From a virus (Duplodnaviria > Heunggongvirae > Uroviricota > Caudoviricetes): a DNA stretch of 23,439 bases. Below are positions 2,997 to 14,406 of the stretch, piece by piece; the stretch's first letter is position 1; each line of letters begins with the position of its first letter. Both the position numbers and the translations under genes were made by a program. The stretch covers positions 1 through 23,439 of the IMG/VR virus record IMGVR_UViG_3300045988_013110; one strand, written 5' to 3'. The notes under the pieces were generated by a model. The model worked only from the letters and a program-made list of their open reading frames with translations, had not been told where the DNA came from and searched no databases.

Positions 2997-3914
2997 TTAC
3001 ATAGATGTTTCGTTTAATTCTTCCCGACGAACGCTGTAAACGTCGGTGGCTTTTGCCAGCAGTTCGTCATCATCTGAAAGTTTTTGTGCAATGTATTTGT
3101 AAGCCTTATCCAGTTCGGAGACAGTGCTGTAATTCATCGCTGCGCTGGTAAAGGCCATCAGCACTTCTTCTGGATCACGGCTATCCGCTTTACGCGTTTG
3201 CTCATCATGCTTTTTCACTGGTTTAGCGTTGATCAGACTGTTCATGCTGGATGCTGTGCCGTGCTTTGCCTGACTTCTTGGAGTTACGTCACGTTCAATA
3301 ATGTCAGGTGAGTCGATATATTTACCTTCCATTTCCTCAGCTGTGGCTTGTTGACCAATCTCCGGCCATGCTTTACGTAATGCCTGTGCCTCTGCGCATT
3401 TTGCCAACTGCGCATAAGGGCGCTTTTTCCACATGGCATTTGGTGCCGATGTGTCACGCCCCCCAGTTGCATAGTTCTCAATCCAGTATTCTTTGGCGCT
3501 AAACTCTACGATTTCCCCGCTTGCCATTCGCTTGCTGACGGTGTACTTACACCACTGAGGGAAGGTAACCTCCACGCCTGAAAGCGTTTGTGTTACATCT
3601 GGACCGAACTCAGGTTCATTAGCGCCTGCGTAATCGCCGGAACGGTAGGCCTGAATGCGATAAAGTCCAATGCCAGGCATGACCACGTCGCGCCATTCAT
3701 TCTTTCCACTCTTCGAGTCTTTAACACTCATTGGTACCAGGTGTACCGGCTTAAGAAGAGGATCGAGTTGACGCGCCCGGCAGTAATCGACTGCCATCAT
3801 TACCGATTCATCTTTTGCCCCAGGGTAAATACTGTTTTTCAGAGCGCTCCATGTAACTTCATCGATTCCCCGAATAGCCAACACATCATTGGTGATTGCA
3901 ATTTCGTTGCTCAT
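2997..3914 (-). CDS. RecT/Red-beta family single-strand annealing protein
   Basis: Segments HLVPMSVKDSKSGKNEW and AMWKKRPYAQLAKCAEAQALRKAWPE resemble the RecT family by recollection. ATG 3914 overlaps the exonuclease stop (ATGA). Confidence 0.8.
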   Translation of the reverse strand: MSNEIAITNDVLAIRGIDEVTWSALKNSIYPGAKDESVMMAVDYCRARQLDPLLKPVHLVPMSVKDSKSGKNEWRDVVMPGIGLYRIQAYRSGDYAGANEPEFGPDVTQTLSGVEVTFPQWCKYTVSKRMASGEIVEFSAKEYWIENYATGGRDTSAPNAMWKKRPYAQLAKCAEAQALRKAWPEIGQQATAEEMEGKYIDSPDIIERDVTPRSQAKHGTASSMNSLINAKPVKKHDEQTRKADSRDPEEVLMAFTSAAMNYSTVSELDKAYKYIAQKLSDDDELLAKATDVYSVRREELNETSM

Positions 3915-4732
3915 ACGTACATATCCTGTTTGCGTGCCCACTCAGGGCGTTTAATAATTTCCACGCCGCCCCATTCATCGCTGATGCGGCATTCGTGATA
4001 GGTATTCAGATCCCGGCGGAACAGAGCGTGCCCGGCATCGACATCCGGCGCATCCAGCCCGAACACGCGTACCGGATACCGACCACAATCAATGCTTTCG
4101 CTCACGGCAAGAAAGAAAAAACCATGCGGCTGACCAGTAACCCTCATTGCGCCTTCGCGGTACATTGCGTCCTGCACGTGGTAGCGGAATTCCTCGATGT
4201 GACGTGCAAAACGGTCCATATCTGCAACCTTTTTCACGTCGACGATCACGTTGTGCTCGTTCAGCCATTTGTCTGGACGAATTCGGCACAACTCACCCGT
4301 CTCTTCATCGTTCCAGTACATTGATGCTTCGCAGTAACCAGGTGCTTCCAGCATCCAGCGTGCCGCCGGGTGAGCCATTGCGCTATCACGCATCAGCTCC
4401 AGTTTCCGCCACTGCTCGGCATCAAGTACCGTAATCCCCATATCCGCTACATCACGAAGAAATGCTTCTTCGTCAGCTTTACCTTGTTTCGTCCGACGAT
4501 CGAACTTCGGTGAAACAATGAAGCGTTTGTCGAATTCTCCAGGCTCCAGAAGCAGACAGTGCAATGCGGTTCCCATATCCAGTGCAGACTTTTTCTCTTC
4601 GTCTTCTGGTGCTGCCTGAACCCATTTAAGAAGCGCCGGATTCTTGGCAACCATGTCCAGTTGCGACTTACTCACGCCGTCACCGGCGTGGTAGTCTTCG
4701 TTGCTGATGTCGAAATAAATTCCCGGTTTCAT
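3911..4732 (-). CDS. RecE-type recombination exonuclease (PD-(D/E)XK fold)
   Basis: N-terminal GIYFDISNEDYHAGDGVSKSQL and downstream acidic/Lys residues resemble the RecE C-terminal nuclease domain. Sits directly upstream of the annealase, as in RecET modules. Confidence 0.75.
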   Translation of the reverse strand: MKPGIYFDISNEDYHAGDGVSKSQLDMVAKNPALLKWVQAAPEDEEKKSALDMGTALHCLLLEPGEFDKRFIVSPKFDRRTKQGKADEEAFLRDVADMGITVLDAEQWRKLELMRDSAMAHPAARWMLEAPGYCEASMYWNDEETGELCRIRPDKWLNEHNVIVDVKKVADMDRFARHIEEFRYHVQDAMYREGAMRVTGQPHGFFFLAVSESIDCGRYPVRVFGLDAPDVDAGHALFRRDLNTYHECRISDEWGGVEIIKRPEWARKQDMYV

Positions 4733-5028
4733 GCCGCGTCCCTCTGTCCATCAAGCTGATCCGCCAGATCCCAGCGCGCTATAATTGCCATTGCCTCGCG
4801 CCGGTAGGCATCCATCAGTTCTTCGAACTCAGGGCTGTCTTTAGCAGCCTCCAGCACTTCCTGACGAACGCCTTTGCCTGTTACAACGTCGAAAGTTGAG
4901 GACAGTTGATGAAGTCGGATGCTCTCAATCAGTTCAACTTGTCGGTCATATAGCTGTTCTGACAGGCGGTAGTCCTTGTCGAATGCCAGCATGATTTTTT
5001 GAAGATTTTTCTGCTGATTAACGTTCAT
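4729..5028 (-). CDS. hypothetical protein, possibly a Gam-like host-nuclease inhibitor
   Basis: 99 aa from ATG 5028 with GGAGG Shine-Dalgarno. C-terminal DSPEFEELMDAYRREAMAIIA loosely resembles the lambda Gam C-terminus by memory. Stop overlaps the exonuclease start (ATGA). Confidence 0.4.
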   Translation of the reverse strand: MNVNQQKNLQKIMLAFDKDYRLSEQLYDRQVELIESIRLHQLSSTFDVVTGKGVRQEVLEAAKDSPEFEELMDAYRREAMAIIARWDLADQLDGQRDAA

Positions 5029-5030
5029 TA

Positions 5031-5183
5031 TCAGCCCTCCCATATCTCGTTATCGTTGGCTACATCGCGAGCTTCTTTGCTGACGAAAGCCCACTTAATG
5101 CCTTCCTGTAAGGTGCGGAACTTCCAGCTCATGAATCCGCATGCAGTAACGCAGTACCAACCGTTGATGATTTTCCACTGCAT
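5031..5183 (-). CDS. small hypothetical protein (50 aa), first gene of the leftward operon
   Basis: Translated by hand as MQWKIINGWYCVTACGFMSWKFRTLQEGIKWAFVSKEARDVANDNEIWEG. GAGGT Shine-Dalgarno 8 nt upstream. Below the length cutoff of the ORF track. Confidence 0.35.
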   Translation of the reverse strand: MQWKIINGWYCVTACGFMSWKFRTLQEGIKWAFVSKEARDVANDNEIWEG

Positions 5184-13173: not shown

Positions 13174-13221
13174 TCCGCTGCTGGGGATAATGTCGTTGAT
13201 ATCCTCTGATGAGGATAAAAT

Positions 13222-13250
13222 AAAGCCCGCCAAATGCGCGGGCTTTATTT
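13222..13250. terminator. bidirectional terminator between TerL and the reverse-strand gene
   Basis: Stem AAAGCCCGC / GCGGGCTTT followed by ATTTTT on the plus strand and a T-rich tract on the minus strand. Confidence 0.6.
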
Positions 13251-13258
13251 TTAAATAA

Positions 13259-13606
13259 TTATTTCTTGATAATATTTCCAGACATTGTGCTGGCGTTTCC
13301 ACCAACAGTTTCGCAGATTACATCTCCAGACATGGTGTTTACATTTCCCAATACATTGGAACAATGGACATCACCAGACATAGTTTTCACATAATGTGCA
13401 TCACCGCTTACAGTCACTGATCCATTTTCAATCTCAACACCTTCCACGCTTCCATTAATTGTTACGTTAATCTGTCCGTCAAGATTGCTATTTTTTTCGA
13501 CACCATCAACGATCACTTTTCCATTGTTAATCGTAATATGATGACCAGTGAAGTCTTCTCCGTTGACGCTAACGCTAGCACCACGTACGTTATTGATTTT
13601 AATCAT
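13259..13606 (-). CDS. reverse-strand accessory gene: Gly/Val/Asn-rich beta-helix repeat protein (bactofilin-like)
   Basis: 115 aa; repeated G-x-V/I pattern (ITINNGKVIVDGV..INVTINGSVEGVEIENGSVTVSGD..MSGDVHCSNVLGNVNTMSGDVICETVGGNASTMSGN). Only clear opposite-strand gene in the late region, bracketed by its own terminators. Confidence 0.6.
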   Translation of the reverse strand: MIKINNVRGASVSVNGEDFTGHHITINNGKVIVDGVEKNSNLDGQINVTINGSVEGVEIENGSVTVSGDAHYVKTMSGDVHCSNVLGNVNTMSGDVICETVGGNASTMSGNIIKK

Positions 13607-13714
13607 TATAAATCATCCTCTTTTTGAATCGAGATTAACCTCAGGAGATACTATGACATGTTTTTCATGTATGTCGTAATCTGCATCGATATCATAATTG
13701 TGACGTATCACGCC

Positions 13715-13739
13715 AAAAAAAATGCCCGGCGAACCGGGC
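13715..13739 (-). terminator. rho-independent terminator (minus strand)
   Basis: Stem GCCCGG / CCGGGC with loop CGAA; minus-strand T8 run follows. Confidence 0.6.
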
Positions 13740-13816
13740 GAACTGGAAGCAATGAGTTATGCCTTCCGTGGCTGTACTGGTTTACAGCATGAAGCCATCG
13801 CAATGGCGTCCTGCTG

Positions 13817-13859
13817 TAAAAAGGGCGGTGATAGTCCTTCAAGGGAAACCATCACCGCC
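13817..13859 (-). terminator. candidate terminator downstream of the tRNA
   Basis: 9-bp stem GGCGGTGAT / ATCACCGCC with an 18-nt loop, followed on the minus strand by CTTTTTA. The long loop lowers confidence. Confidence 0.4.
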
Positions 13860-13902
13860 AAGCCCCTGGAACTTCTGGCATCACGGTCCTTAGGCGTGAT
13901 TC

Positions 13903-13979
13903 TGGCGTGGCATGCAGGATTCGAACCTGCGACCAACCGCTTAGAAGGCGGTTGCTCTGTCCAACTGAGCTAATGCCAC
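13903..13979 (-). tRNA. tRNA-Arg (anticodon UCU)
   Basis: Hand-folded 77-nt cloverleaf with CCA: acceptor GTGGCAT/ATGCCAC, D-arm GCTC-AGTTGGACA-GAGC, anticodon stem ACCGC/GCGGT with loop CTTCTAA (anticodon TCT), T-arm GCAGG-TTCGAAT-CCTGC, discriminator G. Confidence 0.85.
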
Positions 13980-14301
13980 AACGCTGAGAGCACTTAGCCT
14001 GTTAAGGCGCCACACTTTGTCGCGGCTCCATAAATGCTCTCATCGTTGTACCCTCGTCTCTTCCGAGGCGTCACACCGAATCGCCGGGATGGTGAATCCC
14101 CGTGCGCGGAATAAAACCGCTCGACTTGCACATTCCGGCTACCTGGTTCGTTTGCCACAGCCAGGGAGGGTGCCCCTTAAACGCATCCAGACCGCTATCG
14201 GCGCATGTGCCATACGCCGTACTGCTCAAAATAAAAGCTCACTCCACCTGTTCAATTTAACGACAAGCCAGTCAGGTTAGTAACCGGAATGAACTCTTTG
14301 G

Positions 14302-14316
14302 TTACCTGAAAGGTAA
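14302..14316. promoter_or_regulatory. operator-like site upstream of the virion operon
   Basis: Perfect TTACC-TGAAA-GGTAA; a GGTAA half-site at 14374-14378 sits at the same 62-bp centre offset. Confidence 0.45.
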
Positions 14317-14406
14317 TAATTCGCGCGTTAAATGTCAACTGTCTACGATAAATAAATCATATGTGGTTAAATTGGTAATAATTTAATTGCGTACGGAGTC
14401 ATTGAT

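Follow-up and report, generated by a model that had tools for sequence, protein, structure and literature searches.

A covarying structured RNA beside a phage tRNA-Arg gene recurs in temperate phages of Enterobacterales and is a candidate antitermination leader

Positions 13,980 to 14,300 of a 23,439-nt stretch of phage DNA (Caudoviricetes; IMG/VR virus record IMGVR_UViG_3300045988_013110) lie next to a tRNA-Arg gene. The whole stretch is called the window below. An earlier, sequence-only reading had described these positions as GC-rich non-coding DNA that might hold the promoter and leader of the tRNA, a second small RNA, or a remnant of the donor locus of the tRNA. We found that the second of these suggestions is essentially right: a structured RNA family with a core of ~170 nt is represented by one copy at 14047-14220 on the minus strand, and a stem extends the structured region to 13978. 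That the element is a structured RNA is close to certain. As to its function, we propose, with a probability of roughly 40%, that the core is a cis-acting leader that makes the host RNA polymerase processive on early, largely untranslated transcripts. This proposal was derived from sequence comparison. As judged from the database and literature searches given below, the RNA family is previously uncatalogued. The predicted 5′ leader of the tRNA precursor has nearly the same limits as the positions in question, and the conserved RNA makes up most of that leader.

Results and discussion

Fold of the RNA core

The structure was drawn by hand from aligned segments. It consists of the nested helices P1, P2, P4, and P5, of variable hairpins inside P2 and at P3, and of one pseudoknot (Table 1). 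The single-stranded segments of the core are nearly invariant. A covariance model (R1; 161 positions, 22 pairs) was built from relatives and searched against the window. The sole copy is the one at 14047-14220 (144.6 bits, E = 6e-48), and the runner-up in the 23 kb reached 9.8 bits. The match covers all 161 model positions, and every helix and motif of the family is present in the copy of the window.

Two alignments support the pairing. In a MAFFT alignment of 39 diverse members, standard pairs are found in 92.2% of the cells, compared with 25.6-45.8% when the 3′ partners were slid by 1-3 columns. In this alignment, 13 of the 26 pairs are changed on both sides, and the observed covariation score was reached by none of 500 shuffles. 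The model-based alignment of 71 distinct sequences, which includes genome-derived copies, gave 92.8% standard pairs (24.9-42.1% in the slid control), and 12 of the 22 pairs are changed on both sides. The changes in the single helices are as follows.

P1: The compensatory change is from G:C to A:U (34 vs 35 sequences). Instead of the P1 hairpin, RNAalifold predicted from an initial alignment that the P1 loop (GCACAU) pairs over a long range with AUGUGC in the near-invariant 19-nt stretch. This alternative was rejected as a replacement because P1 is backed by covariation. Both sides of the long-range pairing are invariant, and it is possible that it forms a second pseudoknot.

P2: The compensatory change is from C:G to U:A (49 vs 21 sequences). 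The apical loop of P2 and that of the terminator-like hairpin T1 share the pyrimidine-rich motif (U/C)CCUUGA at many loci (positions 13830-13850 in the window; L010 and L065 among the related loci), which resembles the 3′ end of 16S rRNA.

P4 and pseudoknot: Compensatory states of P4 are A:U, U:G, and C:G. In the mEp460 clade, the pseudoknot pairing CACC with GGUG is replaced by AACC with GGUU, a change from C:G to A:U.

P5: The compensatory change is from C:G to G:C (42 vs 20 sequences), and the helix occurs as CCUCG/CGAGG, CCUGG/CCAGG, and GCCGG/CCGGC. A CCTCG/CGAGG hairpin had been noticed earlier at about 14053-14069. It is real, is identical with P5, and lies one base off that position (14052-14068).

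A sarcin-ricin or loop-E reading of GGUAGCCGGAAU was also considered and rejected by inspection, as the geometry is unfit.

G-U pairs (169) far outnumber A-C mismatches (37), so that the opposite strand would pair less well, at 84.2%. Hence, the functional strand is the tRNA strand, and the structure is more likely one of RNA than of DNA. Members of the family are 148-180 nt long. Their lengths modulo 3 split 17/12/10 without preference for multiples of three, by which a conserved reading frame is excluded.

The interval is non-coding. Its G+C content is 0.55-0.60 at ~13950-14250 and 0.35-0.39 in the flanks (13200-13650 and 14250-14400). The tRNA-Arg(UCU) was identified by ARAGORN and by the Rfam tRNA model (73.3 bits) on the minus strand at 13903-13979, so that 13980-14300 is its 5′ side. 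The earlier description as GC-rich non-coding DNA upstream of the tRNA is thus borne out by composition, by the strand of the tRNA, and by the lack of coding support, and the full non-coding interval (13607-14406) is wider than was first stated. The only long open reading frame (ORF) over the element, 14017-14280 on the plus strand, had been regarded as Arg-rich, lacking a Shine-Dalgarno sequence, and spurious. We agree with this view. The frame starts with TTG and encodes 87 aa, 11 of them Arg, and no Shine-Dalgarno-like sequence was found in the 20 nt upstream of it. None of the ORFs over the element is supported by a Pfam family, PHROG, or PADLOC, and indels among the members break the frame.

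Lack of a conserved structure across relatives would, according to the sequence-only reading, have spoken against a functional RNA, and a covariance-model scan with Rfam had been suggested. The relatives share a conserved, covarying fold. In Rfam 15, no family matches the core at the gathering score, the sole match in the window being the tRNA. At E up to 10, no match was obtained on the minus strand within 13980-14300. When 12 related loci were compared with Rfam at both thresholds, the core was again unmatched, and C4 and isrK were matched elsewhere in mEp460. Literature searches on put-like RNAs, N-independent antitermination, P1 ban transcriptomes, and tRNA-like prophage RNAs found no description of the RNA, the put RNAs of King et al. 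2011 not being covered by them, and a search on the sequence itself found none either. The small RNAs termed Pas from prophages of enteropathogenic Escherichia coli are located near capsid or tail genes or Q, and were rejected as a different element.

Distribution and genomic context

The window belongs to a phiV10/TL-2011b-like (epsilon15-like) E. coli phage or prophage and shares 98.7% identity with TL-2011b over the region. When the intergenic region was searched by megablast, phiV10-like phages were retrieved and, in unrelated phages, ~82% matches that are confined to 13973-14220. The lambdoid phages matching this segment are mEp460, cdtI, 2H10, and the Stx2c and Stx2a phages. P1/P7-like phages match at 14058-14220. 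The copies in other phages are unannotated or lie under calls of a hypothetical protein such as mEp460_037.

Two pattern scans of IMG/VR gave at least 120 loci each, the cores of which form 36 clusters at 90% identity. In a scan of one genome per species, 23 true copies were found, 22 of them in Enterobacterales. The genera are Kosakonia, Citrobacter, Klebsiella, Enterobacter, Kluyvera, Phytobacter, Erwinia, Buttiauxella, Pseudescherichia, Superficieibacter, Pseudocitrobacter, and Escherichia. The 23rd copy resides on a 1.7-kb contig binned as Bacillota, which is probably mis-binned. Among complete E. coli genomes, 1,822 of 5,426 contain the core, at 2,448 places (up to 4 per genome, 546 on plasmids), and 24 of 25 copies among the matches listed are without annotation.

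The genomic position depends on the type of phage. In lambdoid phages, the RNA shares the strand of the cI repressor gene and of the first early-left gene and occupies the interval between the two. It is there the first element past the operator-bearing promoters (PL), whose -35 regions are overlapped by operator-like dyads. In P7, it is located between the tRNA-Ile gene and ban, within the C1-controlled ban operon and on the ban strand. A phage deposited as a Stenotrophomonas phage has it after a cI-like gene. In the lytic Klebsiella phage SopranoGao, the RNA follows the lysis genes and has its own promoter, forming a stand-alone unit at the genome end. The upstream neighbours thus vary, from cI in lambdoids to tRNA-Ile in P7, and by their N-terminal residues, at least eight sequence types can be told apart among the first ORFs downstream. 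The strand of the RNA is always that of the neighbouring transcription unit. Promoter-like sites are present 6-55 nt 5′ of the RNA in 26% of 108 contexts (7% of control windows). Between the RNA and the first ORF, 1-4 intrinsic terminators are predicted in most of 116 distinct contexts that are not of the P1 type. We conclude that the family is a mobile module shared by temperate phages of Enterobacterales that are not related to each other.

Two arrangements deviate from the single complete copy. Locus L024 has two core copies on the same strand, 4802-4958(-) and 3995-4153(-), ~800 nt apart. In epsilon15 (L004 1507-1576; also L138 6962-7031), P1 and the start of P2 are fused to T1 via a shared UUCCCUUGAUGCU. 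A deletion removed most of the RNA and the tRNA there, and the joint is the sequence common to the P2 and T1 loops. The loop motif (U/C)CCUUGA is the recombination point of this deletion. The epsilon15 record labels the remnant stretch 'RNaseIII' on the opposite strand.

Transcription unit of the window

Read along the minus strand, the segment from 13980 to ~14309 makes up the 5′ part of a predicted non-coding transcription unit of ~600 nt. The order of the unit is a promoter-like site over a palindrome, leader, core, stem D1, tRNA-Arg, hairpin, and two terminators (Table 1). Transcription is predicted to start near 14309. The idea that the region holds the promoter and leader of the tRNA holds for the leader and for the existence of a promoter-like site, but this site lies beyond 14300. 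The leader is conserved in part with epsilon15-like relatives (GGUGGAGUGAGCUUUU...). The palindrome motif (ATTACCTTTTAGGTAAT and similar) is also present 5′ of the RNA in L065, L072, L082, and L101. In the epsilon15 record, a repressor ('lysogeny') binding site is annotated at the corresponding place, 200-220 nt 5′ of the RNA; the correspondence is one of place.

Stem D1 starts 2 nt past the core and encloses a 42-nt variable 'cargo' (13993-14034). The duplex energy is -27 kcal/mol in the window, and the final two bases of the stem are G1 and U2 of tRNA-Arg. A duplex of this type, with -24 to -33 kcal/mol, is formed by the 24 nt that follow P5 in most of 111 distinct contexts. The partner strand follows 29-191 nt downstream and ends in GUUGUGG, and many of the strand pairs are mutually compensating. 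These features make D1 a plausible candidate for an RNase III site, and the 5′ end of the tRNA at 13979 is the presumed RNase P site. In most phiV10-like relatives, homology with the window stops at T2 (the match begins at 13716).

Table 1 Features of the RNA core and of the surrounding unit, in the direction of the tRNA strand
Feature	Positions	Strand	Description
Promoter-like site	14316-14345	-	-35 TAGACA at 14345-14340, 18-nt spacer, -10 AATTAT at 14321-14316; 9/12 matches in consensus scan
Operator-like palindrome	14302-14316		TTACCTTTCAGGTAA; overlaps -10 hexamer and predicted start
5′ leader	14221-14301	-	~90 nt from predicted start; weak hairpin at 14268-14287
P1 hairpin	14199-14219	-	CGGCGUAU-GGCAC-AUGCGCCG, loop GGCAC
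J1/2	between P1 and P2	-	AGCGGU
P2 domain	14143-14190	-	variable, closed by CUGG/CCAG
Near-invariant 19-nt stretch	14125-14143	-	GGUAGCCGGAAUGUGCAAG
P3 hairpin	14106-14120	-	variable
P4 hairpin	14086-14100	-	loop UCACC; UUCACCA where the innermost U:A pair is absent
Segment between P4 and P5	between P4 and P5	-	GGCG-N4-GGUGUGAC
Pseudoknot	14091-14094 with 14074-14077	-	P4 loop CACC with GGUG
P5 hairpin	14052-14068	-	CCUCG-GAAGAGA-CGAGG, loop GAAGAGA
Stem D1	13978-14049	-	~20-bp duplex; 5′ strand ACAACGAUGAGAGCA at 14035-14049, 3′ strand UGCUCUCAGCGUUGU at 13978-13992
tRNA-Arg(UCU)	13903-13979	-	encoded CCA end; directly abuts stem D1
Conserved hairpin	13879-13901	-	AAUCACGCCUAAGGACCGUGAUG; 3′ of tRNA; seen as aatcacgcctNaggaccgtgat in epsilon15-like and lambdoid loci
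Terminator-like hairpin T1	13818-13859	-	14-bp stem, then CUUUUU; inverted repeat I3
Hairpin between the terminators	13784-13817	-	ACAGCAGGACGCC...CAUGCUGU; inverted repeat I1
Terminator T2	13715-13739	-	GCCCGGUUCGCCGGGC, then eight U; end of non-coding unit
115-aa ORF after T2	13259-13606	-	phrog_3163, function unassigned in PHROG

tRNA and tRNA-like neighbours

A tRNA gene is located within 800 nt of the RNA in 36 of 127 loci, and none within this distance in the other 91. It is a tRNA-Arg downstream of the RNA in phiV10-like loci and a tRNA-Ile(CAU) upstream of it in P1-like loci, always on the strand of the RNA. In P1/P7, the RNA begins 14 nt after tRNA-Ile. Many loci, for example the lambdoid locus L001, have a domain GUGGUGA...UCACCAC-AAC after stem D1 in place of the tRNA. 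Its acceptor-like closure of 7 bp is perfect in 48 of 84 contexts. The element at L095 1077-1203(-) is tRNA-like (Rfam tRNA, 43.9 bits). It has intact acceptor, D, and T arms; where the anticodon arm would be, 64 nt are inserted, and ARAGORN is negative.

The D and T arms of the tRNA-Arg of the window are identical to those of K-12 argU. An alignment with argU shows likeness inside the tRNA alone, the flanks being unrelated, and R1 gave no matches at argU, in rrnA, or in HK022 (24.5-32 kb, E up to 1). With the tRNA-less loci added to this, the third suggestion, a remnant of the donor locus, is not supported.

Proposed function as an antiterminator leader

HK022-type put RNAs bind the zinc-binding domain of the RNA polymerase beta′ subunit and suppress pausing and termination in cis. 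In HK022, a phage without N, put is an RNA that acts alone on RNA polymerase, just 3′ of PL, and it remains active once severed from the transcript (PMC9378689). By analogy, the core would act in cis on the elongation complex of the host sigma-70 RNA polymerase soon after initiation. The long untranslated early transcript would be made processive, i.e., resistant to Rho and/or intrinsic terminators, and the core would be a functional analogue of the HK022 put RNA and of the rrn leader. In lambdoids without N, it would let PL transcription past the terminator(s) before the early-left genes. In the phiV10-type unit, the tandem of long-stem T1 and T2 would be needed to stop the modified polymerase, as at the ends of rrn operons. 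RNase III (at D1) and RNase P (at 13979) would cut the RNA from its tRNA or tRNA-like neighbour. Since put is active after severing, such processing is compatible with a role that is initiated in cis.

Several observations are in line with the proposal. The family has no conserved protein partner, and its unpaired nucleotides are near-invariant, which points to a conserved host partner. In mEp460, Q is present and no N is annotated, and an 11-gene early-left operon lies behind the RNA and a terminator of -20.7 kcal/mol. The constant strand, the promoter-like sites 5′ of the RNA, and the intrinsic terminators past it, given above, agree with the proposal as well. Dependence on Nus was the property for which the mEp phages were collected (PMC11893012), and a put-like mechanism has been speculated for related N-less lambdoids (PMC12315714). 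Furthermore, core-bearing leaders are mosaics that also hold recognisable antitermination signals, namely a put-like module and an rrn boxB-boxA.

Both the core and put follow a repressor-controlled early promoter in N-less lambdoids and precede terminators. Neither needs a phage protein, and the conserved nucleotides of the core would fit binding to a host machine. This placement (early promoter, no N, before terminators) is seen in the lambdoid members and not in P1/P7; the window copy has it with respect to promoter and terminators. In structure and occurrence, the two differ. While put has ~70 nt and two stem-loops, the core has 148-180 nt, at least four helices, variable hairpins, and a pseudoknot. 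The core is usually present once per phage, whereas put forms an L/R pair, and the core is also found in podophages, P1-like phages, and a lytic Klebsiella phage. When seven core variants were compared with the PL-PR region of HK022 (blastn-short), only chance matches of 9-14 nt were obtained, none of them in putL.

A separate put-like module of ~65 nt, AAGCCCAGACGAUAUCUGAGUGGCUUAAAAAACAGAUGGGAGCCGGUGGAAUCCCGGC, was found in 11 loci, e.g., L035 5208-5247(-), L033 6864-6903(+), and L006 2785-2824(+). It aligns with the anchors AGCCCA, UUAAA, and GGGAGC.CGG of HK022 putL and takes the place of core P5 in L035, L011, L012, L036, and L044. By this alignment, the module is probably a put-family antiterminator.

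The rrn leader and the core both stand at the head of a long untranslated transcript that contains tRNA or tRNA-like modules and ends in tandem terminators, and ~20-bp processing stems flank variable cargo in both. The core itself has no counterpart in the rrnA leader. A boxA consensus (UGCUCUUUAACAA or CGCUCUUA), single-stranded beside a boxB, was not found in the core. A boxA-like UGCUCUCA (13985-13992) is, unlike rrn boxA, the paired 3′ strand of D1 and covaries with its partner; it is unconserved across the family and replaced by unrelated sequence in some members. A true rrn boxA was seen in one relative only. In L086 (core at 3169-3329), a boxB-like hairpin and then a canonical rrn boxA, TTTGCTCTTTAACAATCTGGAT, follow ~25-47 nt after the core, and this boxA agrees with the spacer boxA of E. 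coli rrnA at 21 of 22 positions. We take this for an apparent antitermination signal of the rrn type, here in the leader of a phage.

In a BLAST comparison with the rrnA operon, only this boxA and a cargo fragment in relatives were matched. Two loci have a 40-nt copy of 16S rRNA (34 of 40 positions identical). In L097, ~458-497 nt into the leader, the cargo holds a copy of 16S rRNA nt 243-282 (compared with E. coli rrsA), and in L101 the copy was noticed by eye. A likeness of the core itself to 16S rRNA (AGCGGUCCGG; UCACACCAUG vs UUCACCAUC), also noticed by eye, was put down to chance, as BLAST against rrnA was not significant for the core.

A number of points weigh against an antiterminator. 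Promoter, start site, and the sites of processing are all predicted. A put-like or boxA element is also present in several leaders, so the core may not be the antiterminator. In P1/P7, the RNA is located in the middle of an operon, 85 nt 5′ of ban, and no terminator is nearby. Read-through of T1 and T2 in the window would reach one small cargo ORF and then a bidirectional terminator by the terminase gene. Resistance of long stems to processive antitermination has been reported (PMC10325885), and the stem of T1 has 14 bp. Epsilon15 lost most of the RNA and the tRNA; hence, the element is dispensable there. Being G-rich and highly structured, the RNA would be a poor Rho substrate anyway. Finally, the constant tRNA or tRNA-like neighbourhood fits a co-processed stable RNA at least as well.

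Alternative explanations

This last point leads to the main alternative, which we consider possible, if doubtful: a stable, trans-acting RNA. The RNA would be the payload of a small non-coding operon that is expressed early together with a tRNA or tRNA-like module. It would be excised by RNase III at D1 and by RNase P or other tRNA 3′-processing enzymes, T1 and T2 would mark the end of the unit, and the product would bind or titrate a conserved host macromolecule such as a nuclease, the polymerase, a ribosome-associated factor, or a defence sensor. Phage T4 provides a precedent with the stable RNAs C and D inside its tRNA cluster. The close neighbourhood to tRNA agrees with such a payload: the RNA directly abuts the tRNA in the window and in other phiV10-like loci, it follows tRNA-Ile after 14 nt in P1/P7, and an acceptor-stem-like domain occupies the same place in lambdoid loci, including the tRNA-like element of L095 (43.9 bits). 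The long, near-perfect D1 resembles an RNase III substrate, and the unit of the window is closed by tandem strong terminators. The mid-operon position in P1, the stand-alone unit with its own promoter at the genome end of SopranoGao, and the two copies in L024, with a possible dosage effect, fit as well. So do the invariant single-stranded segments in combination with an unconserved protein partner, and the separate put-like or boxA elements that co-occur with the core. On the other hand, PL transcripts ending at the terminators would leave the early-left operon of lambdoids without a visible promoter. In addition, no target can be named for the RNA, and its accumulation is an assumption.

Known phage RNAs offer partial parallels to such a stable RNA. 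The species 1 and 2 RNAs of T4 are stable RNAs that are co-processed with the phage tRNAs, and the C4 RNA of P1 and the CI RNA of P4 are matured by RNase P. Like the core, they are phage non-coding RNAs beside tRNA genes, with ends likely set by tRNA-processing enzymes and with a function that is not evident from the sequence. The Rfam models of C4 and isrK do not match the core, which is far more widespread among enterobacterial temperate phages. GOLLD and ROOL are large, ornate, phage-associated RNAs that often lie beside tRNAs. They share with the core that they are phage-borne, structured, without known function, and often next to tRNA genes, but the core is much smaller, occurs in Enterobacterales hosts, and is unmatched by Rfam models. 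For a ToxI-like type III antitoxin, we found no tandem or direct repeats and no PADLOC match, and the downstream ORFs are unrelated between loci.

It is improbable that the RNA is a self-cleaving ribozyme or processing element that separates transcript modules or sets the 5′ end of the tRNA or tRNA-like domain. The compact pseudoknotted fold and the invariant junction nucleotides are typical of small ribozymes, and the RNA is positioned at module boundaries in arrays of structured RNAs. Nevertheless, none of the Rfam ribozyme families matches at E up to 10, a conserved position that could serve as cleavage site was not found, and the RNase III and RNase P sites would already explain processing.

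We give equally little credence to a riboswitch-like sensor that responds to a metabolite, an ion, or uncharged tRNA and gates transcription through the downstream terminators. Such a sensor would agree with the order of promoter, pseudoknotted aptamer-like fold, terminator, and genes. However, unrelated modules separate the core from the terminators, which are 200-500 nt distant, and no competing pairing between core and terminator was seen. The downstream genes have no common function, and there is no match to an Rfam riboswitch. The P1 loop contains UGGC, the complement of the GCCA in which the neighbouring tRNA-Arg ends, as might be expected for a T-box-like contact. This contact was rejected, as the loop does not covary with the discriminator: next to the P1-type tRNA-Ile, which ends in ACCA, the loop likewise reads UGGC.

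We consider it very improbable that the region is no more than a common promoter and leader of the tRNA or a piece of a host locus captured with it. It does form the 5′ leader of the tRNA precursor and does contain a promoter-like site. As a complete explanation, this is refuted by the 91 of 127 loci without tRNA, by the covariation, which reflects selection on the fold of the RNA itself, and by the argU flanks, which are unrelated and give no R1 match. A protein-coding gene (the 87-aa ORF or a small ORF on the minus strand) or a DNA site (att, pac, or origin) can practically be dismissed: an open frame exists and some annotators called hypothetical proteins such as mEp460_037, but there is no Pfam family, length differences between members are not multiples of three, the compensatory helix substitutions and the ratio of G-U to A-C (169 vs 37) are the signature of an RNA strand, and a genomic position that varies by phage type is not that of a packaging or attachment site.

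Significance of the RNA family

The carriers of the family include textbook and medically relevant phages: P1/P7, phiV10 and O157 typing phages, Stx2a and Stx2c converting phages, and cdtI. About one third of complete E. coli genomes carry it, almost always without annotation among the matches listed. The family merits an Rfam entry, and it explains spurious calls of hypothetical proteins such as mEp460_037. For lambdoid phages without N, the RNA could explain how early-left genes are expressed past terminators.

If the core is an antiterminator, it would constitute a second, structurally distinct RNA route to processive antitermination and a compact genetic part with which transcription could be made terminator-proof. 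Should the core act in trans as a stable RNA, we would be dealing with a new effector that the phage uses early against a host function. We regard it as rather unlikely, though worth considering, that the RNA represents a previously unrecognised class that needs no phage protein, be it by reprogramming of the polymerase through a fold unrelated to put or as a stable RNA that is matured by the tRNA machinery and neutralises a host factor. Under such a reading, the core may head 'mini-rrn-like' operons that consist of the core, an RNase III stem with cargo, a tRNA or its mimic, and tandem terminators.

Neighbouring genes and further observations

The large terminase gene is located left of the region and the portal gene right of it. 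The upstream neighbours of the element in the window are a divergent lipoprotein/portal pair. On the other side of T2, the 115-aa ORF is followed by the bidirectional terminator next to the terminase gene (~13215-13249). No Pfam or PADLOC match was obtained for this ORF. It differs from the ORF at the same place in most phiV10-like relatives and, lying between two terminators, gives the impression of an exchangeable cargo gene. A candidate promoter of its own, together with the palindrome ACATGAAAAACATGT, is located at ~13640-13680.

Rfam models of isrK and of the C4 antisense RNA (67 and 83.6 bits) detected genes for these RNAs at L001 (mEp460) 4851-5039 (+) and L007 208-396 (-). They lie upstream of a Rha/antirepressor gene in the early-right operon of the same lambdoids that carry the core, and the arrangement resembles an immI-like module.

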